A DNA stretch of 63,616 nt, the filler included. It is 9 parts of 9 records of this genome, joined end to end, with 100 filler letters (N's around TTAATTAATTAA, not from the genome) between each part and the next. Parts side by side here need not be neighbours in the genome. Positions count along the whole stretch, not along the records: positions 34,369 to 44,066 come from SRR31147125_38539; 8 more parts are not named here. The stretch is one strand, 5' to 3'. The notes under the pieces are model-generated. The model did not search any database, was not told the DNA's origin, and saw only the letters and a program-made list of their open reading frames with translations. Both the position numbers and the translations under genes were made by a program. Of this stretch, positions 7,082-57,420 are shown in pieces. Each line of letters starts with the position of its first letter. Positions within the stretch are counted from its first letter, which is position 1.

Positions 7082-7181
7082 NNNNNNNNNNNNNNNNNNN
7101 NNNNNNNNNNNNNNNNNNNNNNNNNTTAATTAATTAANNNNNNNNNNNNNNNNNNNNNNNNNNNNNNNNNNNNNNNNNNNN
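7082..7181. other. Artificial contig spacer
   Basis: N44-TTAATTAATTAA-N44, with stop codons in all six frames. Confidence 0.99.
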
Positions 7182-9827: not shown

Positions 9828-11072
9828 ATGAAACAGCGCGTCATATTACATTCTGATATGAATAATTATTATGCCAGTGTCGAGTGCCATCATCGTCCAG
9901 AAGTCAGGAATAAACCTGTTGTTGTGGGTGGTGATGAAGAACTGCGCCATGGTATTGTGCTTGCAAAAAACTATATTGCAAAAGCGGCTGGGATTCGAAC
10001 AGGCGAGACGCTTTGGCAAGCGCGGGAAAAATGTCCGGGGCTTATTGTTTTGCCGCCAAATTATCCGCTCTATCTGCGCTATTCAAAGCTGGCGCGGCAG
10101 ATATATGAAAACTATACGGCTCAAATTGAACCATTTGGTTTAGATGAGGCTTGGTTGGATGTTAGCGGTGATAATGGAGAGTTGGTTGCTAATGATATAC
10201 GTAAGCGGATAAGTCGTGAATTGGGTATTACCGCTTCTGTTGGCGTGAGTTATAACAAGATATTCGCTAAGCTTGGGTCTGATCTTAAAAAACCGAATGC
10301 CACAACCGTAATCAGTCGGGATAATTACCAAACTGTTGTGTGGCCATTACCAGTCGAAGACCTTCTGTATGTTGGTTCCGCAACCAAGCAAAAGCTCAAC
10401 AAGTATTGCATCACAACGATTGGAGAGTTGGCAAATACATCTGAAGAATTCCTGCATGGATTGCTAGGAAAGGTAGGTAATGTTTTATTTTCCTTCGCCA
10501 ACGGTCTTGACCAGTCTCCGGTCATGCGTATGGATGAAGAATCACAAATCAAGTCCGTGGGTAACAGCACAACCACACCGCGCGATCTTATTTGCGATGA
10601 AGACGTAAAAATTATTTTGTTCGTTCTCAGTGAAAGTGTATGTGCCCGTATGCGCGAACATGGTTTTTTTACCCGCACTGTAGTCATCTCTGTGAGGGAT
10701 AATGAGTTATATCGATTTGAACGACAAATGAAACTGTCGAAACCATCTTGCATATCCGGTGAGATCGCTCATGCTGCGATGCAGTTATTCCATCGTCATT
10801 ATCGCTGGCCGAAACCTGTTCGAAGTCTTGGTGTCCGTTGTACCGATCTGATTCCATCGAATACGCCGCTACAATTATCACTATTCGAAGATCAGGCACA
10901 ACGCCAAAAACAGGAGGCGCTTGACAGAACAGTGGACTCGTTACGGCGCAGGTTCGGCCATTTCTGCATTCAACGTGCGTCTGTATTGGCTGATAAACCA
11001 CTCTGTGGCATTAACCCCAAAGGTGATCATATCATACATCCTGTGGGATTCTTTAAGGACAGCATGTCATGA
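9828..11072 (+). CDS. dinB: Y-family DNA polymerase IV
   Basis: ILHSDMNNYYASVE, IEPFGLDEAWLD, ASVGVSYNKIFAKLGSDLKKP, little-finger domain and QLSLF clamp motif. Likely start is ATG 9828. Confidence 0.93.
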   Translation: MKQRVILHSDMNNYYASVECHHRPEVRNKPVVVGGDEELRHGIVLAKNYIAKAAGIRTGETLWQAREKCPGLIVLPPNYPLYLRYSKLARQIYENYTAQIEPFGLDEAWLDVSGDNGELVANDIRKRISRELGITASVGVSYNKIFAKLGSDLKKPNATTVISRDNYQTVVWPLPVEDLLYVGSATKQKLNKYCITTIGELANTSEEFLHGLLGKVGNVLFSFANGLDQSPVMRMDEESQIKSVGNSTTTPRDLICDEDVKIILFVLSESVCARMREHGFFTRTVVISVRDNELYRFERQMKLSKPSCISGEIAHAAMQLFHRHYRWPKPVRSLGVRCTDLIPSNTPLQLSLFEDQAQRQKQEALDRTVDSLRRRFGHFCIQRASVLADKPLCGINPKGDHIIHPVGFFKDSMS

Positions 11073-11332
11073 AGGAAATGCGTTATGAAAACGAGAATAA
11101 GGTATACGTCAAGGTGGGTGCCCTTTTTCATTCTGACGGACGGATTGAGCCTATGGCTTTTTGGTGGGAAGACGGACGACGCTATGCCATTGACAGGATA
11201 CTGGACGTATGCCGTGCCGCCAGTACCAAAGTGGGCGGCACAGGAATCCGATATACATGCATGGTGTGCGGTAAACAAATATATCTCTTTTTAGAAGAAG
11301 ATCGTTGGTTCATTGAACGGAGGACTGGATAA
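11069..11332 (+). CDS. Small dinB-associated protein
   Basis: Overlaps the dinB stop; P..F.WEDG..Y.IDRI...RAAS.K.GG.G.RY.C...WF pattern. Confidence 0.75.
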   Translation: MKEMRYENENKVYVKVGALFHSDGRIEPMAFWWEDGRRYAIDRILDVCRAASTKVGGTGIRYTCMVCGKQIYLFLEEDRWFIERRTG

Positions 11333-11619
11333 TGTGCTGGAGAAAATCGGCGCTGTATCGTCGTTGCCACAGGCTTCTATGAATGGCAAAACGGGATGGC
11401 GACAAATAAATGTTGCCGTTCCGACGCTCAAAAACAAAGATGTCGTACCTTGCCGGACTCTATAAGAAACCTCCTATTGGAGATACATACGTCATAATTA
11501 CCACTGCCGCCAACCCGTTAATATCATTATATCATCACCGGATAGTGTTTATACTTGATACTGACTATCTCAGATTATGGCTTCCCAGCGTAGATTTTGC
11601 TCTTGGCTTAATACAATAG
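11332..11619 (+). pseudogene. SOS response-associated peptidase (SRAP/YedK-HMCES family) remnant
   Basis: TAATG-coupled Met-Cys start, then ENRRCIVVATGFYEW in a second frame and LAGLY...IITTAANPLI..YHHRIVFILD...WL in a third. Confidence 0.8.
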
Positions 11620-11660
11620 CCATGTAATGCTGTATTCACCGCTTGCATCGTTTGGTATCA

Positions 11661-12620
11661 TTACCGAACTATGTCGCATTTATTCCGACATAGTTTCCGC
11701 TGTATCATCAACATATCATTGTAATCCTCACCTTTATCCGGCGGCTTGTTTTCGATGGCGCAGACACCATCCAAAATAACAGATATGGCTTGCGCCGCCT
11801 GTCGGCCTGCGTCATCGTCGTCAAGACAGAGCACAATCGTGTCTGTCTGAGGATGCTCCTTTAGATATTGTTCCAATGCCTTTGGTAGCGTTGTTTCCGC
11901 AATATCTTTTCTTGGCAGATAGATTCCCCCAAGGGAGAGATAGCTCAGATCATGCCAGTTTTGTCCATTCATCTTAACAAGAGTGGCAAACGATAGGACG
12001 TCCACGGCACTTTCAAAAACATGTAATTGACTATTTGGTTGATCTGCCAGAATACAAAACCCGTGCCGCTTATCGCTGCCCAAAACATCCAACTTAAATG
12101 TAGAATTATATGATGTCCCTCTCAGCGTGGCATAACAAGGGATACCTCTGGTGTCAAATCCTACGAAGACAGCATTCCCGTATTTTTTGCTCTGGTATAT
12201 CTGACCCTTTTGAATACAATACGATAAAATGTCCTGATCAATGCCACGGCCTTTCAGATAAGCCATGACACGCTGATTGTCTGGATTTGCCTTTGGCAGT
12301 TCAAAATGCTTAGTAGGCTCTTTTTGAGTCGTGGTCATCGGCGCAGTAATACCTGCACGATTATTATCGTATAGCAGCAACACGGCGTCTGTAAACGCCA
12401 TGTTTTTCACCTTGATGAGATAATCCAGCGCTGAGCGCCCTCCGACATGACGAGACCACCAGCACCATTTTCCATTGGAAATCTTTAAGCTGTCGTGTGT
12501 TTTCGTTGTATATTCATTTCCCCCGACATGTACCAGCTCCTGCGGCTCATATCTCTGCAGGTATATCAGCAAGTCCATTTGCTTGACTTTCTTGATGATC
12601 TCCGGGTCAATATATGGCAT
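11661..12620 (-). CDS. DUF3991 and TOPRIM domain protein
   Basis: HDSLKISNGKW.W.S...GG.SALDYLI, YL..RGID, NAVFVGFD, VFESAVD.LS, LCLDDDDAG, DYND. Likely start MPYID after GAGGTG. Confidence 0.88.
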   Translation of the reverse strand: MPYIDPEIIKKVKQMDLLIYLQRYEPQELVHVGGNEYTTKTHDSLKISNGKWCWWSRHVGGRSALDYLIKVKNMAFTDAVLLLYDNNRAGITAPMTTTQKEPTKHFELPKANPDNQRVMAYLKGRGIDQDILSYCIQKGQIYQSKKYGNAVFVGFDTRGIPCYATLRGTSYNSTFKLDVLGSDKRHGFCILADQPNSQLHVFESAVDVLSFATLVKMNGQNWHDLSYLSLGGIYLPRKDIAETTLPKALEQYLKEHPQTDTIVLCLDDDDAGRQAAQAISVILDGVCAIENKPPDKGEDYNDMLMIQRKLCRNKCDIVR

Positions 12621-12642
12621 GTTTTCACCTCTTTCGGACATA

Positions 12643-12675
12643 GAAAAAGCCGACCGGGCTGTGCCGGACGGCCTA
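12643..12675 (-). terminator. Possible intrinsic terminator
   Basis: Minus strand AGGCCGTCCGG-cacagc-CCGGTCGGCT followed by TTTTCT. Confidence 0.5.
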
Positions 12676-12699
12676 AGGTGTGCAGTGTATTCAGTTGTC

Positions 12700-13092
12700 T
12701 CACGTATTCGCTGTTTCCCTCAGTTGACTGATCCTTTGTGTATCCACATAATGCGTGGCATATGCGGTTTCAATTTTCTCATCCCCGGACTTGCTGAATC
12801 GCAGCTTGTTCTTCCGGTCCTTCCCGTACTGATGGTAAAACGTCCATGAGGGCTTGAGCTTGTTTATTGCTGCGTAAGACCGTACCTCGCTCATAATAGC
12901 GGAGAGTTGGCGCAAGTTCGCATGGCAAACCTTTTCCAGAAAGGACACTCTGCCAAAGCGCCAATTCTCATAATCTTTCTTATCCAGAACACCTATATCC
13001 ATCAACACGTCTACCGGAGCCACATAACCTTTTTGCCGCATGTGCTGGTACATGGCGTTATGGATTTTGCCTTTCAGGTTTTGTGTGTCCAT
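12700..13092 (-). CDS. Conserved-looking hypothetical protein
   Basis: 130-aa ORF with AAAGGA RBS, starting 9 nt after the HipA-like gene. Confidence 0.75.
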   Translation of the reverse strand: MDTQNLKGKIHNAMYQHMRQKGYVAPVDVLMDIGVLDKKDYENWRFGRVSFLEKVCHANLRQLSAIMSEVRSYAAINKLKPSWTFYHQYGKDRKNKLRFSKSGDEKIETAYATHYVDTQRISQLRETANT

Positions 13093-13101
13093 ATCAAAAT
13101 C

Positions 13102-14517
13102 CTATCGTTCCAAAGGTGGGGTATCCTTTTGCCGTGTAAGCCCCAAAAGCTGCCGCACACGGCGCTGCGTATGTTTTTCGATGGCCTCCAGCCGTTCCTC
13201 TGGCCAGTTTATGGACGAGTGTCGTTTGAACCGGAACCCAATCAGACGTCGTAACTGCTGCGTCTGCACCTTGCCCATGACCTGGGTGCAAATACGCTCG
13301 AAAGAAATATCACCATACGCAGGGAAGCGCGTTTTCGCATACTCGTCCAGATGAGCGATGTCGTCCTGCATGGCATAGTTAAACAGCGAAAGCCCGTTGT
13401 CGAAGATGGGGGCCGGTGCGATGATCGCACCGGCGTGATTATCACGCAACACACCAAAGTTGCCGAAGTGCCGATCCTCGTTGTAGATCACGGCATCAAA
13501 TACCAGCATACTATGTGCGGCTTCCAGAAAATCATCGCCCAATTCAGCGCAGTAGTCAAGGCAAGCCTGCAAGCCACCGGAGCGTACCAGCCGCCCGATG
13601 GGAATGAAGGCGGTATTAATGTCGGTAAATAATTTGCACTTGGAGGCAAGAATACCTTTCCAGTGTTCCAGATCATACACGACGGCACGCAGGCCCATGG
13701 TCTGGGCGATCTGACAAGCGTAAAACTCGCTGTACGGCTCGTTGCCGGTATTGGCCGCACCGCTTGTGCCGCCCTTATACAAATAGATTTCGCCGTTCTC
13801 CAGCCGGTGCCACGCCTTGGGCAGCATACCACCCGTAGTCAACTCAGGAGAGGTGGTAAAAGCCCGGTCGCTCTGCTGGGTGCCCGTGTAGGCTACCAGC
13901 GAAAGAATTTCCGAGAACTCGTTATCATAGAGGTTGTATTCTGCAAACGTCCCGTCAAAGCCCTTGGGAACCACCCAAAAGCTGTCGTTTAGGGATAACC
14001 CCTTGCATACGTCGATGATGCCTTTGGTGTTTCCCACTGAAAGCCCCAGCGTTTTTAGTATCTCTTCCACAAAGGCACGGTTTTTCGGTATCACTCGATG
14101 CCGCAACCAGCCTAAAACACCCTCGTCAGTAAGCTGTAAATCCAACGGCAGCAGATGTCTTTTCTCATCAAGCAAAGTCGCAATTTCCGCCGCTAGGCTG
14201 ACGCCCTTCTCCTCCAGCTTGAATTCCAGCAAAGGCGTATCATATAAGCGAAGCTCATAGAGGTTTGCCATGGTCACCATGTCCTCCTTTTCTTTTGGAA
14301 CCAAATCTAATTCCATATGCAGTGCAGCGGCGATATTCAAAAGAAAATCCAATGAGGGATTGTGCGCACCGCTCTCCAGCCGGGAGATGTTGGAGCGCTG
14401 TGTCCCAAGCATTTTCGCAAGCTGCGCCTGCGTCAACCCTTGATCTGTCCGTGCCTGTATGATCCTCTCAATCAGGTTTTGCCGCCACTGTTTTGTCATT
14501 TGATCATAATCGGGCAT
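13102..14517 (-). CDS. XRE-family HTH fused to a HipA-like kinase
   Basis: GLTQAQLAKMLGTQRSNISRLESG..NPSLD HTH; kinase motifs GMLPKAW, LYKGG, EPYSE, FDAVIYNEDRHFGNFG, APIFDNGLSL. Likely start is ATG 14517. Confidence 0.88.
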   Translation of the reverse strand: MPDYDQMTKQWRQNLIERIIQARTDQGLTQAQLAKMLGTQRSNISRLESGAHNPSLDFLLNIAAALHMELDLVPKEKEDMVTMANLYELRLYDTPLLEFKLEEKGVSLAAEIATLLDEKRHLLPLDLQLTDEGVLGWLRHRVIPKNRAFVEEILKTLGLSVGNTKGIIDVCKGLSLNDSFWVVPKGFDGTFAEYNLYDNEFSEILSLVAYTGTQQSDRAFTTSPELTTGGMLPKAWHRLENGEIYLYKGGTSGAANTGNEPYSEFYACQIAQTMGLRAVVYDLEHWKGILASKCKLFTDINTAFIPIGRLVRSGGLQACLDYCAELGDDFLEAAHSMLVFDAVIYNEDRHFGNFGVLRDNHAGAIIAPAPIFDNGLSLFNYAMQDDIAHLDEYAKTRFPAYGDISFERICTQVMGKVQTQQLRRLIGFRFKRHSSINWPEERLEAIEKHTQRRVRQLLGLTRQKDTPPLER

Positions 14518-15393: not shown

Positions 15394-15493
15394 NNNNNNN
15401 NNNNNNNNNNNNNNNNNNNNNNNNNNNNNNNNNNNNNTTAATTAATTAANNNNNNNNNNNNNNNNNNNNNNNNNNNNNNNNNNNNNNNNNNNN
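15394..15493. other. Artificial contig spacer
   Basis: N44-TTAATTAATTAA-N44. Confidence 0.99.
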
Positions 15494-21076: not shown

Positions 21077-21176
21077 NNNNNNNNNNNNNNNNNNNNNNNN
21101 NNNNNNNNNNNNNNNNNNNNTTAATTAATTAANNNNNNNNNNNNNNNNNNNNNNNNNNNNNNNNNNNNNNNNNNNN
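21077..21176. other. Artificial contig spacer
   Basis: N44-TTAATTAATTAA-N44. Confidence 0.99.
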
Positions 21177-27213: not shown

Positions 27214-27313
27214 NNNNNNNNNNNNNNNNNNNNNNNNNNNNNNNNNNNNNNNNNNNNTTAATTAATTAANNNNNNNNNNNNNNNNNNNNNNNNNNNNNNN
27301 NNNNNNNNNNNNN
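27214..27313. other. Artificial contig spacer
   Basis: N44-TTAATTAATTAA-N44. Confidence 0.99.
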
Positions 27314-28779: not shown

Positions 28780-31700
28780 GTGAGTATTAAAGCAATCAAA
28801 ATAGGAATTATCCTTTGGATAGCTTTCCTGGTTGCGCTCTCCGGTTCTGCCTTTGCCGAGAGAAAAGTCTTTATCAACAATGAGTGGGTCAGTGTTGACA
28901 AGCTAAGACAAAACTCGGAAGAAGATTATGAATCTTATATGGAGCGTGGTTGTACACCAGGAGAATACAAAGTACTAATCACACAAGCGGAATACATACC
29001 GCCTGTTCAGGTTTTTGCCAGAGTAGTTCATTGCAATCCAAATGGAGTATGGGAGGTTGTAACGGGATTGACTGAACAAAATTTCCGGCTTCATGAAGGT
29101 ATCGGACACCTTGATAATGGAACATGTAACGCTTCCGGCAAGAAATCTGTAGTTGATTATGTAGTTGTAGAAAATCTAAGCGAATGGAACTCAGCTTCCA
29201 TTTCACTTGGTATTGACATTTCAGGTTCCATGTCGGGGGGAGCTTTGGAGGAAGCCAAAACCAAACTTAAAGAATTCCTCAACAACGTATCCCCTGCCGA
29301 TAGGATCGGATTGGTATCATTTGAATCAACAGCAAAAATAGAACATGATTTTTCATTTGATACAGCAAGTCTCACCAGTGCAGTTGATGCTCTCACAACA
29401 ATGGGCAGCACAGCTCTTCTTGATGCTATTTGCCTGTCACTTGATGAAGTAGTATCTCAAAATGGAGCAAAGGCCGTAGTCGTTTTTACGGATGGACAGG
29501 AAAATCAATCTCAAAATTGTACAACGGTACAGCAGGTTATAGACAAAGCAAAATCCTATTTTATACCTGTATATACAATTGGTGTAGGTAGCGGTACTGA
29601 TTCCAATTATCTACAAACAATTGCTGACGCAACAAACGGCAAATTTTACAATGCTCCTTCTGCCAGTGATCTGGCAGCTATTTACGACGAAATCACTCAC
29701 CTGATTCAGTCACAATATGTAATAAACTACAGATCGCCATTCCCTGAAAGTTCAGGAATTGACAGATGTGGCGATGTGCAGGTCATTCTTCCGGGAGGAA
29801 CTCAGATAGATCCTGCGGCATATAGTTACACAATCAGCGGAACTGACTCCATATCATTATCTTTATCGACAGAAACAAGATCATTGATTTACAGTGGTTC
29901 CGGTAATGATATCCCAATGCCCATTTCAGTTGAAGTTGTATCTCCAAACGAATCAGTCGAAGGATTTCTGTACTGGAGACCTGCCAATGGAGATTTCGAG
30001 AAAATCCCATTACAGATAAACGCAAGGGGAACAAGTTCGGGTTTATATAAAGCTACAATCGCTAAAGAAAATGTGATTGAGCCTGGAATCGCTTTCTTTG
30101 TAGAATTCATCGGTGATTCGACTGGTACAAGGGTAACTCTTCCAACAGTTGGTCCTCAAACAAACCCATACACAATTGCAATTAGCCCAAACGCTCCTCC
30201 TGTAATTAGCACCAATTCTTTCCCAGCTAATTTTGATTCTTCACAGGATCTCAAGATCAAATTCAGAGTTTTTGATGAAACGGATGAAACAACTGAAGCC
30301 AATGTATATACAAGAAAAGTTCGAGTAGGCGGTCATTCATTCCCGTTTAATAAAATAGCAGCCACAAGAACTTCCGGTTCTGCACAAAGCGGAAATTGGG
30401 AAGCGACCATTCCTGTTAAAGATTTAGGTGGACTTGGTATTGAAGTCTTTATTACAGCAACCGACAATTTTGGAATCAAAGGCTATTATGCGACAATGGA
30501 TTATCCAAGGCGCATTCTGCCCAAGGAAACTGTAAAAGATCCTGGTGATGGATTCACTTTACCATACACCATGGGACCATTCTATTTAACAGGTACGGAT
30601 TCAACCAGTATTAGCCCAGCCAGTCGAGACGAGACTGTTTACAAGTACAAAATATCTGGTGGATTACATATTAACCTTCTTGGTAATTGGGCATATTTTG
30701 AGGCTGATAATTGCACTATCGACTTGCAATTCCCTCCAGTTATGCTTGAATGCGATTCTTCTGTATTAACATTCAATGAAGAAGTTGTACTTTTCCAGGA
30801 TAAAAGCATAAGTTCATTGCCGGTTGATCCTGCAATCTTTTCCAGTAATGGAGAAATCAGACACGCAAGTGATTCAGGCACTATAGATAACGATTTACTT
30901 GATGCATTTCAAGCTCAGCTAGGTGCCAATCTTGAACTGTTTGGACTGGCTTATGCAAGAGTTGATAACTATGGATGCTTGCTATATGACACTTCCATAG
31001 AGAGCTTTTTCATTGGAAAACTTGCACAAATGTTCGACTTTAACATGGGGCTAACCAACAAATTCAGCGGAAAACCTCAAATTGGAGTCGGAGCTGTTGG
31101 AGTTTGCCCGAATATCGGAGTCAAACTGGTTGACGTAAAAGTCGGATTGAAGGTTTCAGTTTCAGACTGGATCAACCCAGTCGAAAAGGTATCTGGTGGT
31201 TTCAACTTCAATATTAAAACTTCCGATGCTCCAGACAGATGGAAAAAGAACTTGGGTTTCGGCGATCACGCACAAATGCTCACTGGTTCTTTGAAGGTAA
31301 ACCTTGGTTGTTCCTTGTTCTTTGCCGGTGCTAAAGAAAACTGCCAAATCGATAAAGTTTCACTCCCGATAAACAAAGCTTCACTTGGAGTGGATTTGCA
31401 TTGGCCTCTAGTCGGAATCAAAAACTGGGGATCATGTTTTGATATGGATATGGATGTCAGCGTCCAAAGCAGATTGCTGCTTGCTACCATTCCAATACCT
31501 CCTCCAGGATTTCCACTTAATCTCAGATTCAAACAAGCAAGCATTGAACTGGCTTCCGCAGGCAAGATGGCTGCTGGAATTGGTAAACTGCTTGGTGCAG
31601 ATAGTTGGAACGCCTGCCCTGCAAAAGATACCAGATTCACCGTCGGCATTGGTTTGTCGCTTGATCCGGCAGGTATTGACGTTGCGCAAAAGATTGGTCT

Positions 31701-34268
31701 TGGCTTAAAAGGAAGCCTCGACTTCTCCATTCTCAGAGCTGACTTCAACGGCTGGGCGGAATGGATTGATGGTCAGGTTGGCTGCCCACTTTGCTCAATG
31801 GGCGTGGATGGTCAAGCACAACTAATCTACGGAGATATCAGCTTGACTATTCCTCTGATAAAACTTCCAATCAGTGCAAAAGGATCGTTGCTGAAACTCT
31901 ACGGTGGGGTTGCCTGGAAGTGGGATTGGCCACAAGGCAACAAGTATCCACTGGCATTAACTCTTGAAGGTGTTACAGAAACCACAATGCCTGGCATTCC
32001 TGGCTTTGAATTATTCAAGGGTAAAAATTCAACAACTTTCAGTCTTAATACAACACCCTTTAAAATTGAAGCAATTTCCGGCGGTATCGTTCAGGCGATG
32101 ATTCCAGAGGCTGTTGGAAAAATTTTCCCTGGTTTAGGCGGCAAAGTACTAAGTAGCGCAAAATCTTATGGGAAAATCAAAATTGACGGTCAGGACAATG
32201 AATTCCTCGTGGTTGGTGGAAAAACAGTCCTGTTTGGAAAGCTTGATCTTGTCATGAAACTTCTAATCAACAAGGATGGAGTTGACTTCGAGTTTGTAGG
32301 TCTTGAAGACATTCCAACCCATGATGTCAATATAAACGCTCTTGTCAAAGGACGCTTGAGAGGAAAGCTCGCTGCTGTCGATCCTGAAACAGGTGAACAT
32401 ATCTTCCAGCTTCTAGGCAACGAAGATTCTATAGCTGTTTTCATAGGATGGGAAAACGAACAATCAGGATTTAAACTTGTAGATCCCGATGGAGCAGAGA
32501 TTTTTCCGGGTGAGAAAGTTGAGGATCTTCAAATTTCTATCGTAAACTGGACTGATGGCAAAGGTGCTTTTGCAGTAATTGGCCGACCTAAAGCCGGTAT
32601 TTACAAAATAGTACCTGATGATCCTCAAAACAGTCAGCTTCAAGTTGCTGTCAAGCTAGTAACCAAATCCGCAATGCTTAATGAAGTTACAAAACTTTCT
32701 GCAAGCGGTGGATCTGAAGGTGCTGTCGATCTCGAATGGGAGCTTAGCGATCTTGGTAAATCAATAGCTGAAGACAAACAAGCGACCCTTCATGTCTTCC
32801 TCGATACCGATAATCAGGGTGAGGATGGAACTTTGATAGGCAGTCTAAACGCCAAAGATGGTTCAGGAAACCTGACTCTCAAGGGATTCAGACCAGGTAA
32901 ATACTACTTCTACTCCCTGATGGTTACCGGCGAAGGCTTGCCAAGTGCAACGTATTCCAAAGATCCGCTGTCAGTCAGCTTCAGTGGCAGACCGGATAAG
33001 GTAGAAGATCTGGAAGTTGAAACCGCTGATAATGACACGGTTGATCTTCAATGGTCTTCGATTGGAGGAGTTAGCGGATATAGAGTTTATCTATCGGATT
33101 CAGCAGAGAAATCGATCAACACCAAACAGGTACCGATAATTCTCTATGGTAGCGACATAACCAAGTACAATTTCACAAAACTTGTACCTGGTGGAAAGTA
33201 TCTGGTTGCAGTAAGCGCATTTAACTCTCAGGGTGAAGGAGAATTGTCTGATGTAAAAGACTTTACTTATCTTGCATCAAACACAAACAACAATCCTTCC
33301 TTCGACTACGCCAAGAATCAGCTACCACTTGCGATTCCGGCCAAAAAACAGTTTAGCGCGCAACTAAAAGCAACAGATCCGGATCAGGATGAGGAAATCA
33401 GGTTCCAGATTGCAGAAGGACCTGACGCTATGTCAATAGAATCAAACACTGGAATAATCAACTGGACACCTAAATCAACAGACATCGGCCATCATAAGAT
33501 TGCATTCAGAGTCGTCGATGAAAGAGGTGGTTCCGATTATTACCAGTGGGAATTTGCCGTTACAAACGAATGGGCGTCTGACCAAGTAACTCTGGAAGAC
33601 CCAAATAAGCAGGAGGTAGACGTGGATATTTCCAAAGATGAAGGATGTAATTGTAATACAAGCCAGACAAACGGTTCAGTGGCATTTATGCTAATGTTAC
33701 TCGGTTTGTTGGGAGCTTTGCGCTACCGAAAGGTAAGACAAGCATTTAATCAAATGAAAAACACTTCATTAATTGGCATCTGTATTGTTCTTTCTTCGGC
33801 TTTCATTTTCGCTTCATGTGAAAGCAGTGGAGATGATTGCACTGTGGATACAGATTGTTCATCAGGACAAACCTGTGTTGATGGATCATGCTATGCCAGT
33901 TGTAAATCAAACAAGGATTGCGAAACAACAACTCCCGCATCTCGCCCCTATTCTCTCGGCTTTTACAAAGCGGAAGACGGCAGCACAGATGGAGACGATG
34001 GTCAAACAACCGAGGACGAAAAAGCAGCACCCGAAACAGAAGATGGTGATACTGCCGAAGCTGTTGACCCGGAAAAACTTGTTTGTCATCCGGCTTATCA
34101 GGCATGTAAACCGAAATGCGCCACAGATGAAGATTGCCCGAATGCCAAGTGTGATAGCGGATACTGCCTTGGAGAAAATCAGGTTCTTGATGGTGATATA
34201 GAAATCACGGAAAAAGAACAGGATGTTCCTCCAGCAGAATGCAATGAAGGTGACCGAAAGTGTGAAAA
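28780..34268 (+). CDS. Giant surface protein: signal peptide, vWA, Ig-like, beta-rich core, FN3, cadherin/He_PIG-like, MYXO-CTERM-like anchor, second lipoprotein signal, Cys-rich repeats; 3' truncated
   Basis: GAGGAG RBS and GTG start; MIDAS DISGSM...T...TDG; LQWS...GYRVY...YLVAVSAFN..GEG; LKATDPD...GIINWTP; GCNC-TM-RYRK; FASC; CxxDxDC repeats. Confidence 0.88.
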
Positions 34269-34368
34269 NNNNNNNNNNNNNNNNNNNNNNNNNNNNNNNN
34301 NNNNNNNNNNNNTTAATTAATTAANNNNNNNNNNNNNNNNNNNNNNNNNNNNNNNNNNNNNNNNNNNN
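34269..34368. other. Artificial contig spacer
   Basis: N44-TTAATTAATTAA-N44. Confidence 0.99.
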
Positions 34369-36527: not shown

Positions 36528-36788
36528 TTAGTTGTTCTCCTGCTTCTCCGCTTTCTTTATAAGCGACTTTTCAAGACGTTTCATCTTCATATTTTTGAAG
36601 GACATTCTGATTTTCTTCCAGAATACACCCACAGCTACACCGCCGGCAATTACCACACCGGCAACAATCTGCACAATATAGGAAGTAGCCGCCGGATCGA
36701 TATAAGCAAACGCCGTTGAAGAAAGTGCAAGCATCGTCAGCAGCACATATGCTGTAAAAATACCCGTGTTACGTAAAAATCTTTTCAT
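36528..36788 (-). CDS. Small membrane protein: signal peptide, YIDP, one TM, basic tail
   Basis: GGAGGG RBS; AFA cleavage site followed by YIDPAATSY, hydrophobic helix, WKKIR. Starts 14 nt after the reductase stop. Confidence 0.8.
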   Translation of the reverse strand: MKRFLRNTGIFTAYVLLTMLALSSTAFAYIDPAATSYIVQIVAGVVIAGGVAVGVFWKKIRMSFKNMKMKRLEKSLIKKAEKQENN

Positions 36789-36802: not shown

Positions 36803-37939
36803 CTATAATATATTGATCAATATTTTTTTAACTTCGCTCTTCTCCAGCATGACTGGATTGTTGTCCATTCTGCCGAGTGTAAAAGCGCCGTTTGTAATAC
36901 TTTCTAAATCGGCTTCCTTTATATCAAAAGCTGAAAGTCTAAGCTCTTGTATGTCTTTCGAAACGTCGAACAGCCATTTTTCAAATCCATTGATTCCGCC
37001 AAAAATATTTGTTATTTGAGATAGCTCAGGTACGACCTTTTGATTTATTCGCATCATGGACGATAGCGTAAGCGCCGCGGCAAACCCATGTTCAACATCG
37101 TGGTTCATGGTCAGCGGATACGAGATGCTGTGGCATGCGGTAGTTTTCGTCATAGAAAACGAAAGTCCTGCAAGCAATGACCCAAGACACATCTCTTCTC
37201 TTGCTTTTATGTCGCTTAGGTTTCCAAGTGCAGCAGGCAGTGCGCGCTTTATACGCTCTATAGAATCCTTTGCGAGCGCCTGTGAAAGCGGATTACGCTG
37301 CTTTGCCCAAAAGCCTTCCATAGCATGGCTGAGAGCGTCTAGTCCGGTGGCAAGCGTCAACCGTTTCGGCATGCTCAGTGTCAGCTCTGGCACGATGAGT
37401 GCATGTTTTGGATAGCATTTTGGATGTTCAACAGAAAGCTTTTTCTTGTTCTCGAAGTCCCATACCGTCGCCCATCTTGTTACTTCAGAGCCTGTGCCTG
37501 CAGTAGTCGGTACAGCAATTATATCTGACAGGAAATCTCCTTTGAAAAATGACTTCTCGCTGATAGCTTCCACAACTTGTTCATAGCTTACATCGTGCGT
37601 TTCGGCAATCCCCTGCAATGCACTAATAGCCTTTGCAAGGTCTATACTGCTGCCCCCGCCTATTGCGAGAATGAATTCGTATTTATCTTCGCTGCGAAGC
37701 ACGTTTATCTGCCTTTGTACATCATCAACTGACGGGTTTGGATTTACATCGCTTATAAGTCTATTTTGATTGCTGCTTATAAACCTGTCTATACTCACAC
37801 ATTCTTTCAGCCTCTTTAAAGCGCCTTCGCTTGCAACCACTAACGTTCGCTTGTCAGTAAGAGACGAAAACAAATCCTCCATTGTTTGCATAGAGCCAAA
37901 GCGTATATCAACTGGTGAAAACGGCTGGTATTGCATCAT
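36803..37939 (-). CDS. Iron-containing alcohol dehydrogenase, probable phosphonoacetaldehyde reductase (PhpC-like)
   Basis: GGGSSIDLAK, PTTAGTGSEVT, DALSHAME, HSISYP...HG; directly downstream of pepM. Confidence 0.85.
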   Translation of the reverse strand: MMQYQPFSPVDIRFGSMQTMEDLFSSLTDKRTLVVASEGALKRLKECVSIDRFISSNQNRLISDVNPNPSVDDVQRQINVLRSEDKYEFILAIGGGSSIDLAKAISALQGIAETHDVSYEQVVEAISEKSFFKGDFLSDIIAVPTTAGTGSEVTRWATVWDFENKKKLSVEHPKCYPKHALIVPELTLSMPKRLTLATGLDALSHAMEGFWAKQRNPLSQALAKDSIERIKRALPAALGNLSDIKAREEMCLGSLLAGLSFSMTKTTACHSISYPLTMNHDVEHGFAAALTLSSMMRINQKVVPELSQITNIFGGINGFEKWLFDVSKDIQELRLSAFDIKEADLESITNGAFTLGRMDNNPVMLEKSEVKKILINIL

Positions 37940-37948
37940 TAATTCTCC

Positions 37949-39241
37949 CTATTTGTCCGGTATCAGTGTCAATATCTGCTTGATCGGCATACAATTATCG
38001 CTGACTTCAAGCGACCTTCCGTTTGCAAGTATCTGCTCTGCCGTTCTCTGCATAGCCGGAAACATACTTCTTATAAGGTGATTGGCGTGTATTACTATGT
38101 TAACTCCGTGCTCAGCAAGCTCGCTTTCGGTAATGCAGTTATAAGTAGTCGGAACAACAACTATAGGAACACCCTTGTTGTTCTCCCTGAACCGTTTGCA
38201 GAACTCCAAGACTTCATCCGGCTTTTTACTGCGTGAGTGTATCATTATGCCGTCTGCACCTGCTTGTACATACGCTGTACAACGGCTTAGAGCATCATCA
38301 ATGCCTTTTTCGAGTATCAAACTCTCACAGCGTGCGATTATCATAAAGTCTTTTGTCTTCAGAGCGTTCTTACCGGCCTTTATTTTTTCGCAGAACTCTT
38401 CTATCCCCGCCTGTGTCTGGTTTACTTCAGTTCCGAACAGCGAGTTCTTCTTTAGTCCGTTCTTGTCTTCAATGATTATTGCTGAAACACCCATTCTCTC
38501 AAGTGTCCGAATATTAAATACAAAGTGTTCAACGAGTCCACCTGTGTCTCCGTCAAGTATTATAGGCTTAGTCGTAACGTCCATTATCTCTTCTATCGTG
38601 TGTATTCTTGACGTCATGTCTACTAGCTCTATATCCGGCTTACCCTTTACTGTGGAATCACAAAGACTAGATACCCACATAGCGTCAAACTCTTTAGTGC
38701 CTTTTGGAGTCTCAATCTTGGTCTTTTCGGCAATCAAGCCGCTAAGACCGCTGTGCGCTTCAATAACAGACAAACATGGCTTCATGGCAAGCAGTTTTTT
38801 TAATCTGCTGCGCCTGTTTTCCGGCATTGCAAGAACTTTATCAAGTCTTGTCATTATTGCTTCAGTTGGTGTCTGAGTATAAGGGAATTCTATTAGCTCT
38901 CCGTTCCACTGTTTCAGCTGTTCGATTATATTCTCACGTATCTCTGCCTGATAACCAGTCCTCCAGTTATCGCCGTGAACAACGATATCGGGCTTTAGCT
39001 CATCAAGTATATCGTAGTACTCCAAAGAATCCTGAACTACAACGTTCGAAACGCTGCTTATGCTGCTGAACATTTCAATTCGTTCCTGAAGAGGTATCAG
39101 AGGATATCGCTTATACGTTGCAATTACTTCATCTGTCAGTACACCCACAGTCAGTTCGCCAAGCTGCGCCGCTCTCTTTAAGATATTTAAATGTCCGCAG
39201 TGAATAATGTCCGTGCTGAAACACGCATATACACGTTTCAT
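37949..39241 (-). CDS. pepM: Phosphoenolpyruvate mutase with N-terminal cytidylyltransferase domain
   Basis: HCGH (HxGH) and VVHGDNW in the N-domain; DGDTGG and the EDKNGLKKNS PepM signature. Confidence 0.96.
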   Translation of the reverse strand: MKRVYACFSTDIIHCGHLNILKRAAQLGELTVGVLTDEVIATYKRYPLIPLQERIEMFSSISSVSNVVVQDSLEYYDILDELKPDIVVHGDNWRTGYQAEIRENIIEQLKQWNGELIEFPYTQTPTEAIMTRLDKVLAMPENRRSRLKKLLAMKPCLSVIEAHSGLSGLIAEKTKIETPKGTKEFDAMWVSSLCDSTVKGKPDIELVDMTSRIHTIEEIMDVTTKPIILDGDTGGLVEHFVFNIRTLERMGVSAIIIEDKNGLKKNSLFGTEVNQTQAGIEEFCEKIKAGKNALKTKDFMIIARCESLILEKGIDDALSRCTAYVQAGADGIMIHSRSKKPDEVLEFCKRFRENNKGVPIVVVPTTYNCITESELAEHGVNIVIHANHLIRSMFPAMQRTAEQILANGRSLEVSDNCMPIKQILTLIPDK

Positions 39242-39976: not shown

Positions 39977-41109
39977 CTAATTCCTCTCGCTTAAGTATGC
40001 CATCAAAGCCTGTTTGTTCTCTTTAGGAGTAGTTGTGGGTCTTCCAAGGTCTTTCCTTGACCCCAGCGCTGCCTTTACCTCTATTAGCGCTGTTCCTGCC
40101 TTGGCTTTAGCTTCGTTTAAACATTGCTGCAAGCTTTCTTCGTCAGAAACCTGTCTGCAATAATCATACCCAAAGGTTTTCGCTATTGCGCTGTAGTCAG
40201 CCTTGCCCATAACAACAGGCATACCCCCCACCGACTCGTGTGCTTCATTGTTGAGCACGATGTGAATGAGATTACTGCATTTCTGCTGAGCTTCAACCAG
40301 TGCACTTCCAAGGTGCATCACCATTGCGCCGTCACCGTCAATACACCATACTCGAGTATTAGGTTTTTCAAGTGCTATTCCAAGTGCAATCATTGAAGAA
40401 TGCCCCATAGAACCGACTGTAAGAAAGTCGTGCGCATGACCTTTACCCTGGGCCTCACGTATCTCGAACAGCTCTCTCGATGCCTTGCCAGTTGTAGAGA
40501 CGAATACATCCTCTTCATCTGCATTCTCGGCTATAGTACGTATTGCGATTTCTCGGGTCATCGTATTCCCATTTTTATAATTGGCTTTATCATCAGCGCT
40601 TAGTGCGCCCTTTCTTATAACAAAAGCATAACTTTTGCCCAGTCTTGCGAGCTCAGAAGCTTTTTTAGAGACTCTTCTAGCTCTTCAACCTCCGTCTCCT
40701 TTGACACAACACAATATTCAATATTCATCATGTCAAGAATAGGAAGCGTAATTTCTCCCTGAAATACGTGCTGAGGCTCGTCTTTAATGCCCGGCTCTCC
40801 CCTCCATCCGATTACGAATATGCATGGTATGGCGTATACATCGCCGCTTAGAAGCGATGCTATGGGGTTGACGGCATTGCCTATTCCGCTGTTTTGCATA
40901 TATACCAATGCAGGTTTACCCGTTGCAAGGTAATGACCTGCCGCAAGGCCAACTGCTCCGCCTTCGTTGGCAGCCACGATATGCTCTCTGTCTACTCCGT
41001 ATTCAGCATACAGAAGGTTACATAGCGCCCCCAGCTGGGAGTCAGGAACGCCAAAGTACCGGCTGACGCCTATGCTTTGTATCCCGTTCAAGAAAGCTTT
41101 AACATCCAT
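39977..41109 (-). CDS. ppd: Phosphonopyruvate decarboxylase, one gene split by a frameshift at T6 run 40661-40666
   Basis: GVPDSQL, AANEG.AVGLAAG, YMQNSGIGNAVNP, DEPQH; then STTGKASRELF, VGSMGH, DGDG...NN..H.SVGG. Adding one A reads LKKASELARLGKSYAFVIRKGAL...MTRE. Confidence 0.93.
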
Positions 41110-41110
41110 A

Positions 41111-43192
41111 CTATTTTTCCTTATCCGTTAGTTTGTCGATTATGTACTGTCCGCCTACCTCTGCGCTTCTTCCGAAGTTTGCAATGTAGGTCTCTCTTAT
41201 CTGCGTTATTTTAGAGGCATATTTTTCACCATTTGCAAGCAGCTCCTCAATTGACGGACACAGCTTGTCCATATGAGCCGGGTCTACCTCTATTCCTATC
41301 TCTTTTCTAAGTACCATCTCAAGCGGCTTAGCCTCTATAACGTCGTACTCTGGATTATTTATCTTGGGCGGCGTGTTAATGAATATGACTGGCTTTTTAG
41401 TTACGAATGCCGCTTCATACGCTGTACCCGACCAGTCGCTGATAACTACATCAGAATTGAATATAGAGCTGCTGTCCGAAAAATCAAGCTCGAACGCAAG
41501 GTCTCCTCCTTCGTAACACCTGTATCGTTCAACTATAGCGTTCATCTTTGCGGCATAACGTTTAACATATTCGGGGTGAGGTCTTACAACAACCTGATAC
41601 CCTTTACCAAGAAGCTCGTCAAGAAGCTCGTGTATACAGCTGTCAAGGATATTCTCGTCCTGCCAGGACGGTGCAATTAGTATCTTTTTATTCTCTCTCG
41701 TCGTTTTTTCCATAGCATCATAACGTTCCTGCAGCTCTTCCAGCATGGAATATCCGCACAATACGAGGTCCTTTTCAGGCAGATCATAATACTGTTCCGT
41801 CTGGCGTATCTCATCAAACTGAAACTTCCCAACACAGAATATAGTGTTATAATGGTCAAGCGCACCTTTCCTTAGAACCATAGTCGTGCTGAGGGGATAA
41901 TGGAACATATAAACATACTCCATGCTCTTCTTGACCAGAGATCTTTTCAGATGGAACTGCTGTATGTCCGACATAGTCATTACGAACATATCTGCCTCTA
42001 TCTTCATGAACAACACAATAAGCCTGTTGTCGTCAATATAGTAAGGAATCAGCTGCGGATTATCAAAATCAAAAATCTGATCGTTCGGATCGCTCGTTAC
42101 GTAGTGTATGACTATATCTGAATTCTCCGTGATATATTCAATAACGCCCTTGAAGTACTTATAGAATCCGCTTTTTTCTGAATAAAACACAAGCTTCTTT
42201 ATGTTTTCTTCATCCAGAAACCTCTTGTAGTCTGCTTTAGCTTTTGCCTTTTGCTCCGCTGTCGGTTTGAGTTTCTTCTCAAGCTCCTTGCTGTTTGCCA
42301 ACGCTTCCTTGCTGTTCTCCAGCGCTTCATAATCTATATACTTTTTAGGCGGATACATTGCGTTCACGATAAGTACTATAAAGAGAGTGATAGTATTGCT
42401 GAGTATCCAGTATATGCCCACACCTGCCGGAACTATGAAAGCAAAATATAGAGAGAACAATGTCAGGAAAATAGCTATGCCCCATCGCCCGAACCAGCCT
42501 GCTTCACGCTGGAGTACATTAACTTTGTTCTGCACAGCCGAAAGCAGAAAAGCGCTTCCTCCGGAAAGAAGCGGTATAATAAGCAGACTGTTCCATTGCA
42601 CTAAGCTGGGTGTCTTTGAAAGATTAAAACCAAGAAAATTAAGGTCAAGCGCTTTGATTTTATCAATAGCCTCAGTTATGCCCGGAACGTTAATCTGAGA
42701 AAAGGCATGAGCATACGCAGGGTCGTTTACCATCTCTACAATCTTCATATGAGCGCCGGAACCTAGCTCGGTCGCTCCAAGCAGCTCCATTGCTTTTGCA
42801 GTCAAAGCGTCTATGATATCCGCGTTTATATGCAGCAAATGCTGAAGAGGGTTGTAAACCACTGCAATAAGTCCAAGTATTATAGGAATCTGAATGAGCA
42901 GTGGAATAGTACCTGCAAGCGGTCTGTACTTTTCCTGTTTATATAAAGCAAGCTGCTTCTCGCCTATCAAATCTCTGTTGCCCACACACGATGCAGCAAT
43001 CTCATTAAGCCTGGGTTTGAGCTTCACCATTTTTATAGAGTTCTTCTGCACCCAGATGTTTAGCGGAAACATCAAAGCTTTTGTAAACAGGGTGAACAGC
43101 AAAATAGCAACGCCGTAGTTTTTGACCAGTATATAGCACAGCCACATTATATAGCCGAGAGGTATTCCGATAACTGTATTAATAAAATCCAT
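41111..43192 (-). CDS. YidC/Oxa1 membrane domain fused to a CDP-glycerol glycerophosphotransferase (TagB/TagF)-like domain
   Basis: N-terminus YGVAILLFTLFTKALMFPL, LYKQEKYRPLAG.IPLLIQIPI, FLGFNL, PAGVGIYWILSN. C-terminus YMFH, ILIAPSW, VRPHP, SDVVISDWSG.AYE....KPVIF. Confidence 0.88.
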   Translation of the reverse strand: MDFINTVIGIPLGYIMWLCYILVKNYGVAILLFTLFTKALMFPLNIWVQKNSIKMVKLKPRLNEIAASCVGNRDLIGEKQLALYKQEKYRPLAGTIPLLIQIPIILGLIAVVYNPLQHLLHINADIIDALTAKAMELLGATELGSGAHMKIVEMVNDPAYAHAFSQINVPGITEAIDKIKALDLNFLGFNLSKTPSLVQWNSLLIIPLLSGGSAFLLSAVQNKVNVLQREAGWFGRWGIAIFLTLFSLYFAFIVPAGVGIYWILSNTITLFIVLIVNAMYPPKKYIDYEALENSKEALANSKELEKKLKPTAEQKAKAKADYKRFLDEENIKKLVFYSEKSGFYKYFKGVIEYITENSDIVIHYVTSDPNDQIFDFDNPQLIPYYIDDNRLIVLFMKIEADMFVMTMSDIQQFHLKRSLVKKSMEYVYMFHYPLSTTMVLRKGALDHYNTIFCVGKFQFDEIRQTEQYYDLPEKDLVLCGYSMLEELQERYDAMEKTTRENKKILIAPSWQDENILDSCIHELLDELLGKGYQVVVRPHPEYVKRYAAKMNAIVERYRCYEGGDLAFELDFSDSSSIFNSDVVISDWSGTAYEAAFVTKKPVIFINTPPKINNPEYDVIEAKPLEMVLRKEIGIEVDPAHMDKLCPSIEELLANGEKYASKITQIRETYIANFGRSAEVGGQYIIDKLTDKEK

Positions 43193-44066: not shown

Positions 44067-44166
44067 NNNNNNNNNNNNNNNNNNNNNNNNNNNNNNNNNN
44101 NNNNNNNNNNTTAATTAATTAANNNNNNNNNNNNNNNNNNNNNNNNNNNNNNNNNNNNNNNNNNNN
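44067..44166. other. Artificial contig spacer
   Basis: N44-TTAATTAATTAA-N44. Confidence 0.99.
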
Positions 44167-50968: not shown

Positions 50969-51068
50969 NNNNNNNNNNNNNNNNNNNNNNNNNNNNNNNN
51001 NNNNNNNNNNNNTTAATTAATTAANNNNNNNNNNNNNNNNNNNNNNNNNNNNNNNNNNNNNNNNNNNN
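50969..51068. other. Artificial contig spacer
   Basis: N44-TTAATTAATTAA-N44. Confidence 0.99.
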
Positions 51069-57320: not shown

Positions 57321-57420
57321 NNNNNNNNNNNNNNNNNNNNNNNNNNNNNNNNNNNNNNNNNNNNTTAATTAATTAANNNNNNNNNNNNNNNNNNNNNNNN
57401 NNNNNNNNNNNNNNNNNNNN
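57321..57420. other. Artificial contig spacer
   Basis: N44-TTAATTAATTAA-N44. Confidence 0.99.

Follow-up and report, generated by a model that had tools for sequence, protein, structure and literature searches.

A YidC-TagF-like fusion protein of Clostridia with a probable role in cell-surface phosphonyl tailoring

Introduction

Several bacterial envelope pathways, including GtrB/GtrA/GtrV, ArnC/ArnEF/ArnT and Dlt, make a building block inside the cell, flip it across the membrane and transfer it outside. TagF, a representative of enzymes that work at the inner membrane face, is attached to the membrane peripherally. Here we describe a gene that joins an integral membrane module of the YidC/Oxa1 type to a TagF-like phosphotransferase domain. 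The gene lies at positions 41111..43192 of a 63,616-nucleotide stretch of joined contigs (the window, meaning the whole stretch that was analysed), on a 9.7-kb contig (34369-44066) that is the only DNA physically linked to it. Together with its neighbouring genes, this fusion probably decorates the surface of gut clostridial cells with phosphonate groups. More specifically, our analysis gives about an even chance that the fusion is the central enzyme in phosphonyl tailoring of the cell surface, by a system that uses a lipid intermediate and YidC scrambling. Most of the functional information is carried by the phosphoenolpyruvate (PEP) mutase (pepM) pathway encoded next to the fusion, by partner enzymes resembling EptA and LtaS, and by three-part fusions found in relatives.

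Several elements of such a system have been described separately. According to the available text of PMC11047089, Escherichia coli YidC scrambles glycerophospholipids in proteoliposomes and Bacillus subtilis MisCB does so in simulations. Membrane enzymes of the alkaline phosphatase superfamily take headgroups off phospholipids, as stated in the available text of a preprint (bioRxiv 10.64898/2026.09.23.753746). For the phosphonate pathway, the available text of Rice et al. 2019 describes a Fom1 cytidylyltransferase-PEP mutase (Ppm) fusion that makes cytidine monophosphate-2-hydroxyethylphosphonate (CMP-HEP) and presents PF12804 and PF01467 domains as common Ppm partners, the PF12804 family having a role in phosphonate activation, while that of Li & Horsman 2022 describes PhpC-type iron-dependent alcohol dehydrogenases (Fe-ADHs) that reduce phosphonoacetaldehyde to HEP. 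As the downstream step, the available texts of these two papers name LicD-like phosphotransferases, glycosyltransferases or cytidine diphosphate (CDP)-alcohol transferases. The terms 'YidC', 'TagF' and 'glycerophosph' have 0 occurrences in their main texts, supplements aside, and the available text of Li & Horsman 2022 notes 'Multiple sulfatases' beside pepM only for Selenomonas 'Group 4 phosphonolipid' clusters. Our literature search (subscription-only papers and supplements aside) returned no paper on a YidC-TagF (PF02096+PF04464) fusion or on a link between YidC and pepM clusters. The parts of the system thus come from known families (YidC/Oxa1, TagF-like, EptA/LtaS-like and the PepM pathway), and it is their combination that we did not find described.

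Results

The fusion gene (P0001; 41111..43192, minus strand, stop codon at 41111-41113) begins with an ATG about 6 nt downstream of an AAGGTG Shine-Dalgarno sequence and runs for 693 codons with no internal stop; the plus strand is full of stops. A preliminary description, made from the letters of this DNA, had placed both domains in one 693-amino acid (aa) frame, and the uninterrupted minus-strand open reading frame (ORF) agrees. The same architecture is widespread: 118 of the 120 best database matches are 687-715 aa long and collinear with the query at a coverage of at least 98%, and 86 of the 120 carry precomputed matches to both PF02096 and PF04464. Where these proteins have a database name, it is 'membrane protein insertase YidC'. 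In GTDB, represented by one genome per species, at least 654 relatives were found among the 661 pattern matches listed, nearly all of them in Clostridia and some in isolates, for example Clostridium aminobutyricum DSM 2634. On a short draft contig that has one probable homopolymer frameshift, in the neighbouring gene ppd, one might suspect that an ordinary yidC was joined to a downstream tagF-like gene by read-through, mis-assembly or a frameshift. The shared architecture, length and collinearity of the 118 matches, the presence of relatives in species-representative genomes that include isolates, and invariant residues within the linker all speak against such an artefact, which we regard as having a negligible chance of being the explanation. 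The fusion is not an artefact; it is real, old and common.

For the analysis of gene context, 72 loci were kept (68 from Bacillota, mostly Clostridia, two from Treponema, one labelled Caulobacteraceae and one unlabelled). The nearest ones, L001 and L006, come from metagenome-assembled genomes (MAGs) of Christensenellaceae and are similar to the window at the DNA level from 36520 through the contig end at 44066. Three loci outside Bacillota (L008, L050 and L056) belong to MAGs labelled Caulobacteraceae, with a full pepM operon, and Treponema (two loci), and reflect either horizontal transfer or binning error.

The YidC/Oxa1 core spans aa 1-280 (42353..43192, minus strand). Pfam model PF02096 covers aa 26-277 (E = 4.6e-32; 111.7 bits versus a cut-off of 35) and NCBIfam model TIGR03592 scores 95.8 bits versus a cut-off of 84.3, so that both curated thresholds support the earlier assignment of roughly the first 280 aa to YidC. 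All of the NCBIfam equivalog models of housekeeping YidC scored far under their cut-offs on the fusion. A profile of 32 family members matched the E. coli, T. maritima and B. halodurans YidC structures (E values from 1e-22 to 3e-16), aligning K38 with E. coli YidC R366, Q101 with Q429 and S265/N266 with S520/N521. In the AlphaFold2 (AF2) model of the fusion (pLDDT 87.9, pTM 0.68), the core consists of a short outside N-terminal tail, five transmembrane (TM) helices and a cytoplasmic hairpin at aa 45-90, with helices at aa 26-40, 42-68, 73-86, 91-113, 202-224, 233-253 and 256-279. Between TM2 and TM3 lies an 88-aa helical loop (aa 114-201) that faces outside according to the model and its charge. 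The hairpin contains 10 K+R versus 4 D+E and the loop 5 K+R versus 9 D+E; this positive-inside pattern, together with the basic linker, puts the C-terminal transferase domain on the cytoplasmic side, which is also where CMP donors are synthesised.

The hydrophilic groove of YidC (K38, T34, Q101, S265 and N266 in the fusion) is well preserved. T34, K38, Q101, P255, G257, G259, Y261, W262 and N266 are invariant or nearly so in the 32 fusions, and the groove position held by K38 is K or R in all loci that include the N-terminus (63/63). Because the groove residues are invariant across the family, we consider that the YidC module has been selected for more than anchoring. The substitution of Lys for the groove Arg, to which the preliminary description had drawn attention, is correct as a position but is not special to the fusion: Lys occurs in 10 of the 10 sequences of an alignment with standalone clostridial YidCs and in most of the complete standalone matches, which rules it out as a marker of changed function. 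The standalone relatives share the enlarged outside loop as well, so neither trait is fusion-specific.

Phylogeny set the YidC domains of the 32 fusions apart as one clade (SH-aLRT 100, stem length 0.8) from 29 standalone clostridial YidCs, which were the apparently complete ones among 120 short matches, the rest having looked like fragments or truncated fusions. None of the genes of the housekeeping rnpA-yidD-yidC-jag context is on the fusion's contig, as had been stated before. In one related Christensenellaceae MAG (L024; 7657-9067 on the minus strand and 9992-13910 on the plus strand), a canonical pair of yidD (PF01809) and a 335-aa yidC (151 bits) is located 1.3 kb from the fusion on the other strand, and the fusion is followed by a three-part NTP_transf_3-CyTase-PepM gene. 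With a yidD-yidC pair of its own beside the fusion, this genome carries the fusion as an additional paralogue; with the phylogeny and with a MAG that has two paralogous fusion genes (L012 and L016), this upholds the earlier suggestion of a repurposed paralogue. A separate yidC was seen directly in 1 of the 72 loci, within the locus DNA covered. Standalone YidCs with a tail are common in named Oscillospiraceae isolates, a co-occurrence at the level of the lineage and not of the same genome.

A charged helical linker (aa 281-330; 42203..42352, minus strand) with the invariant motif P282..I286-D287-Y288 follows the core. It was noted as charged in the preliminary description, and counts of 12 K+R and 11 D+E in aa 280-330 bear this out; AF2 predicted two helices, and the segment resembles the charged C-terminal tails of standalone clostridial YidCs. 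The remainder of the protein (aa 331-693; 41114..42202, minus strand) is a cytoplasmic phosphotransferase domain with a TagF/TarL-like GT-B fold, identified by Foldseek, by PF04464 matches of orthologues and by a profile match to TarL. Foldseek with the AF2 model placed TagF, Cps3D, TarL and Bcs3 on top (E from 2e-11 upwards), followed by generic GT-B enzymes (TagF 3l7i/3l7j, E 2-5e-11, TMt 0.54-0.56; TarL 8va1, 1.3e-7). PF04464 matched 28 of 32 aligned orthologues (51-85% identical) at E ≤ 0.01, with a best E of 7.8e-12, and six orthologues checked singly scored 31.7-43.9 bits against a cut-off of 22.1. Searches of PDB chain sequences with the window protein and with its C-terminal domain alone gave no match, and the profile of the whole family retrieved only YidC structures from the PDB; a profile restricted to the C-terminal domain was needed to match Staphylococcus aureus TarL (E 9e-4), aligned on APSW, RPHP and DWS, the TarL counterparts of which are APTF, MHP (at H539) and DYS. 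The TagB/TagF motifs previously pointed out are therefore real, though weak at the sequence level.

Invariant residues of the TagF-like domain comprise K416-R417-S418, H431, P508-S509-Q511, R537-H539-P540 and D586-W587-S588, and the motifs were present in 67 of 67 well-called loci. Two histidines, H431 and H539, are invariant and lie 108 residues apart. PDB titles give H444 and H548 of TagF and H300 of TarL as mutated residues, and from spacing alone H431 would correspond to TagF H444 and TarL H300. The motif around H431 varied with the supply genes of the locus: HYPLS accompanies pepM, HG.. an NTP-transferase-aminotransferase and HDPMS an ABC importer. Of the 23 loci with a called pepM gene cluster, all but L049 (22 loci) have HYPLS. 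This covariation suggests that the motif is related to donor specificity.

All genes of the contig are on the minus strand, in the transcription order partner fragment, fusion, ppd, PF12804 gene, CyTase-PepM, Fe-ADH and 86-aa protein. Directly after the fusion come two ORFs for phosphonopyruvate decarboxylase (Ppd; 39977..41109, with TPP_N at 40615-41109 and TPP_C at 39977-40561; Pfam and TIGR03297), a nucleotidyltransferase of the MobA/LicC/PntC type (PF12804; 39369..39974; Pfam), a Fom1-like cytidylyltransferase (PF01467; Pfam) fused to PEP mutase (37949..39241; TIGR02320 at 420 bits versus a cut-off of 319.55) and an Fe-ADH (36803..37939; Pfam) predicted to be a phosphonoacetaldehyde reductase giving HEP. 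From the combination of CyTase-PepM, Ppd and Fe-ADH, the operon predicts CMP-HEP as donor. TIGR03297 scored 184 and 244.5 bits on the two Ppd halves and 453 bits on the intact Ppd of L001. Compared at the DNA level with the single 377-aa gene of L001 and L006, the split corresponds to a 1-nt deletion in an A-run near 40565-40610; it may stem from a sequencing error in the homopolymer or reflect a true two-subunit enzyme, with a boundary as in sulfopyruvate decarboxylase ComDE.

The domain had been called glycerophosphotransferase-like, which is right for the fold but not for the donor that the operon predicts: a CMP-phosphonate supply is encoded instead of one for CDP-glycerol or CDP-ribitol, and no gene of the tagD/tarIJ type is on the fusion's contig. 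By tblastn, pepM was present in 25 of the 72 loci. In the 40 well-flanked loci (at least 5 kb on both sides of the fusion) it was found in 19, and 18 of those 19 also have an EptA/LtaS-like gene. Other relatives have different supply genes, namely an AEP (2-aminoethylphosphonate)-transaminase-like gene, an NTP-transferase-aminotransferase, or an ABC importer with an NTP transferase. This pairing of the same core with other CDP- or CMP-headgroup supply genes suggests that the family serves more generally as a module for headgroup transfer.

The last gene of the contig (34406..36274, minus strand; Pfam) encodes a GT4 glycosyltransferase-acyltransferase fusion. It is separated from the 86-aa gene by 253 nt and is probably a separate transcript. 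Its two parts resemble glycosyl-diacylglycerol or lipoteichoic acid (LTA)-anchor synthases and AGPAT-like (lysophospholipid-type) acyltransferases, with the best NCBIfam matches, all under cut-off, being glucosamine-phosphatidylglycerol (GlcN-PG) synthase, monoglucosyl-diacylglycerol synthase and LTA glycolipid-anchor glycosyltransferase. The enzyme might make an acceptor glycolipid; by tblastn it was adjacent to the fusion in 0 of the 72 loci. This gene, the closeness of the fold to the polymerases TagF and TarL, and the free hydroxyl that HEP, unlike AEP, possesses and that the Fe-ADH predicts would all suit a processive domain that links HEP units head-to-tail into a poly(hydroxyethylphosphonate), or 'phosphono-teichoic acid', on a glycolipid anchor, with the EptA/LtaS-like enzymes as ligases or extenders. 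We consider such a polymer a long shot, as other loci pair the family with an AEP-transaminase-like or choline/ethanolamine-kinase supply, whose headgroups are unable to polymerise in this way, and we know of no HEP polymer.

Upstream of the fusion, the contig ends within a gene for an alkaline-phosphatase-superfamily transferase like EptA, MCR-1 and LtaS, of which the 3' 265 aa remain (P0242; 43269..44066, minus strand). The fragment retains a candidate nucleophile Thr (FTMETLSG), CPHAPF and LSDHG, and is 74% identical to the 3' end of a 503-aa gene of L001. When the ORFs of the 72 loci were called and clustered (in 3 of 70 the opposite strand was chosen over the fusion, and only the gene position was used there), two related clusters recurred just upstream of the fusion, with about five N-terminal TM helices and a 300-aa outside domain by hydropathy. 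No Pfam or NCBIfam model recognises the window-type partner, and the profile of its cluster matched none of the PDB chains; its identity comes from profile-profile and fold searches. The profile of the sister cluster matched LtaS (2w5r, E 4e-11), then sulfatases, PbgA and MCR-1, and the two clusters matched each other with a probability of 99.2% (E 9.5e-20). For the AF2 model of the L001 partner (pLDDT 85.3), the top Foldseek matches were full-length MCR-1 (E 2e-8) and EptA, followed by EptC, PbgA and LtaS. D206, T247, H378, D436 and H437, candidate metal ligands and Thr nucleophile, are invariant in the family.

The fusion gene was located in 70 loci, and an EptA/LtaS-like gene is present in 44 of these, directly adjacent in 28; the corresponding figures for the 40 well-flanked loci are 30 and 20. 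Partner genes form arrays of up to four copies per locus, with three upstream of the fusion in L002, L004, L005 and L010. In nine loci (L009, L013, L014, L025, L040, L051, L059, L066 and L067), the EptA-like gene is separated from the fusion by a gene for a 300-450-aa protein that has one N-terminal TM helix and a repetitive outside domain and matches no family.

Searching 1.84 billion cluster representatives (50% identity) with the C-terminal domain returned 2051 matches at E ≤ 1e-3, including 490 at E ≤ 1e-30. According to local profiles, the best 150 representatives comprise 98 TagF-like only proteins (median 386 aa), 36 YidC-TagF, 8 EptA/LtaS-like-YidC-TagF and 8 YidC-TagF-EptA/LtaS-like proteins. 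Both orders of the three-part fusion fit the expected topologies, and Pfam recognised Sulfatase together with 60KD_IMP in 13 of 30 long proteins scanned. Two further fusions join YidC-TagF to a choline/ethanolamine kinase (P0252) and to a signal peptidase S26 domain (S26-YidC-TagF, P0258); S26 genes were also present in L015, L039, L055 and L061, a link suggesting that the small protein or the EptA/LtaS-like enzymes may be processed.

This small membrane protein of 86 aa is encoded by the last gene of the putative operon (36528..36788, minus strand). Its N-terminus looks like a signal peptide, with an invariant A-Y-x-D-P where cleavage is predicted; a single TM helix, in which Q, G, G and W are conserved in the family alignment, and a basic tail follow. 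Pfam and NCBIfam contain no family for it, and an Atlas search gave hypothetical Bacillota clusters only; its own family was found in 33 of the 72 loci and in 24 of the 40 well-flanked ones. Possible roles for the protein are those of a subunit, of a client of YidC or of a molecule that carries the modification. Complex prediction with the YidC part (aa 1-330) scored 0.01 versus a mark of 0.34, which is evidence neither way. After the gene, a terminator-like hairpin at 36503-36479 is suggestive in position, and the scan for promoters and terminators was not above shuffled sequences (21 found versus 19.6 expected, and 9 versus 7.8).

The 86-aa protein resembles a classic YidC substrate, with a short outside N-terminal tail, one TM helix and a basic inside tail. 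The YidC module could accordingly be a dedicated insertase of this protein, of the EptA/LtaS-like enzymes or of both, fused to the transferase for co-assembly only. Such a role would suit the canonical groove residues and the hairpin that the module keeps. S. aureus LtaS is processed by signal peptidase, and the strongest support for an insertase comes from the S26 links and the Pf3-like small protein. The C-terminal tail of Gram-positive YidCs contacts the ribosome, and in the fusion a 360-aa enzyme follows that tail. Further points against are that in the three-part fusions the supposed client is in the same chain, in either order, that a housekeeping yidD-yidC stands beside the fusion in one genome, and that several fusion paralogues per genome are possible, tracking donor chemistry rather than clients. 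On this evidence we judge a dedicated insertase to be quite unlikely.

Nine contigs make up the window, joined by eight spacers of the form N44-TTAATTAATTAA-N44 (7082-7181, 15394-15493, 21077-21176, 27214-27313, 34269-34368, 44067-44166, 50969-51068 and 57321-57420), of which those at 34269-34368 (34313..34324) and 44067-44166 (44111..44122) mark the left and right ends of the fusion's contig. ORFs called across spacers, for example 28780-34320, are in reality cut by contig ends. The GC content per contig ranges from 0.377 to 0.601, and genes for SusD and a TonB receptor with a CarboxypepD_reg domain, both of Bacteroidota type, occur beside Clostridia-type contigs, which suggests a mixed bin or an arbitrary concatenation. 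A Bacteroidota host or a polysaccharide-utilisation context, as the SusD, TonB-receptor and GH30 genes might imply, was ruled out; these genes are uninformative for the fusion because they are on other contigs. Another contig (7130-14544) contains pieces of a Gram-positive-type mobile element, with NikA/MobC, DUF3846-YodL, a Y-family polymerase, Toprim/DUF3991, a helix-turn-helix protein and a relaxase that is cut by the contig end.

Discussion

The gene content suggests the following mechanism. The operon would make CMP-HEP, and the TagF-like domain, via H431 and H539, would transfer the HEP-phosphonyl group of CMP-HEP to a hydroxyl on an acceptor embedded in the membrane, with release of CMP, a transfer modelled on that of TagF with CDP-glycerol. 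The acceptor would most likely be a lipid such as diacylglycerol or a glycolipid, giving a phosphonolipid. The YidC module would hold the enzyme at the bilayer, and its hydrophilic groove would let the lipid headgroup pass through the membrane (scrambling). Outside, the EptA/LtaS-like enzymes would take the headgroup from the phosphonolipid and pass it to a final envelope acceptor, in parallel to EptA and MCR-1, which use phosphatidylethanolamine, and to LtaS and GacH, which use phosphatidylglycerol. A lipid intermediate that crosses at YidC is favoured because the partners belong to an enzyme class that takes lipid headgroups, because they can be fused to the core and because E. coli YidC scrambles. 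In its most far-reaching form, the proposal is that the YidC/Oxa1 fold has been recruited for the translocation of lipid rather than protein, as the synthase-plus-scramblase core of an assembly line in one or three pieces. A phosphonolipid, or a lipid with another headgroup derived from CMP or CDP, would be built on the inner leaflet, pass through the YidC groove and feed EptA/LtaS-like enzymes that phosphonylate the envelope of many gut Clostridia, and the 86-aa protein with its invariant AYxDP start might serve as an additional carrier or acceptor; we offer this tentatively and regard it as rather doubtful as it stands.

The transfer might instead be direct. The HEP-phosphonyl group would then be added at the inner face to a polyprenol-linked precursor of a wall polysaccharide or teichoic acid, or to an LTA glycolipid anchor, with the enzyme acting as do TagB, TagF, TarL and LicD; other proteins would carry out export, YidC would be an anchor only and the EptA/LtaS-like enzymes would have a separate job. 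All characterised structural neighbours (TagF, TarL, Cps3D and Bcs3) act on growing glycopolymers, genes for a TagGH-like ABC transporter, Bac_transf, GT2, RmlD and DegT occur in relatives' loci, a YidC module is lacking in 98 of the 150 best C-domain representatives, and the gene for a glycolipid-synthase-like GT4 enzyme is on the same contig. Such a borrowed anchor leaves unexplained the invariant groove residues, which are more than an anchor needs, the 16 representatives with EptA/LtaS-like and YidC-TagF parts in one chain, and the direct adjacency of an EptA/LtaS-like gene in 20 of the 40 well-flanked loci. We lean against direct decoration, while taking it to be a serious contender.

A number of observations weigh against phosphonyl tailoring through a scrambled lipid intermediate. 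We infer the donor, the acceptor and the role of YidC from gene context. The ppd frameshift means that the phosphonate pathway may be broken in this contig, and the best NCBIfam match of the Fe-ADH, TIGR03405 (Phn_Fe-ADH), reaches 272.6 bits, under its cut-off of 423.7. The fusion protein of the window has no match to PF04464, at E ≤ 1 in Pfam or at E ≤ 0.01 in the window scan. Among the 40 well-flanked loci, 21 have no pepM, and in 10 an EptA/LtaS-like gene is absent within 10 kb. TagGH-like ABC transporters, Bac_transf and GT2 genes occur in several relative loci, so that direct decoration of a polyprenol-linked glycan fits equally well there. To our knowledge, no TagF-family enzyme acts on diacylglycerol. 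Finally, the S26 domain or genes (fused in P0258 and encoded in four loci) and the conserved Pf3-coat-like small protein point towards protein insertion.

If the proposed tailoring system is right, the fusion would be the transferase so far missing from phosphonyl tailoring in a large group of Clostridia from gut and rumen. Bacterial phosphonolipids of a new class would then be expected, as would abundant commensals whose envelopes carry phosphonate, with a bearing on phosphorus cycling, phage and immune recognition, and phosphatase resistance. The system would also mean that evolution has turned lipid scrambling by YidC, lately seen in vitro, into a dedicated and genetically testable function, and that EptA/MCR-1-like enzymes may use non-phospholipid (phosphonate) donors. 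Even on a conservative reading, thousands of 'YidC' annotations are misleading.

Compared with known systems, the transferase domain is closest to TagF/TarL/TagB, Cps3D and Bcs3 (PF04464). It has in common with them a GT-B-like two-domain fold and the motifs AP(S/T)W, (R/K)xHP and (S/T)D(W/Y)S, and we propose for it the logic of the TagF family, in which CMP is released from a cytidine-activated donor at the inner membrane face. It differs in being only 14-15% identical to the TagF-family structures, with the window protein under the Pfam model, in its attachment through an integral five-TM YidC module rather than a peripheral helical domain, and in an operon that predicts a CMP-phosphonate donor where TagF and TarL use CDP-glycerol or CDP-ribitol. 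With YidC, SpoIIIJ and YidC2, the fusion shares the full core of five TM helices and hairpin and the groove positions; it is 29-39% identical to standalone clostridial YidCs in the alignment, with the Lys and the enlarged outside loop common to both. Unlike these insertases, it belongs to a separate clade, has a 360-aa enzyme attached to its C-terminal tail, and is linked or fused to lipid-headgroup transferases and not to protein-export genes.

The supply enzymes resemble those of the phosphonyl tailoring and Lic-type pathways (PepM-Ppd-AEPT/PhpC, PntC/Fom1-type and LicD-type), with CMP activation followed by transfer to the surface as the proposed logic. The partner family has the same five TM helices and outside catalytic domain as EptA, MCR-1, EptC, LtaS, GacH and BcsG, and the conserved D, T, H and DH(G). 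It differs from that class in occurring in arrays or fused to YidC-TagF, and its donor would be the phosphonolipid made by the fusion. The likeness to the Gtr, Arn and Dlt systems is one of logic only: the protein families are unrelated, the proposed flipping element has the YidC/Oxa1 fold and, unlike in those systems, all three steps can sit in one fusion polypeptide.

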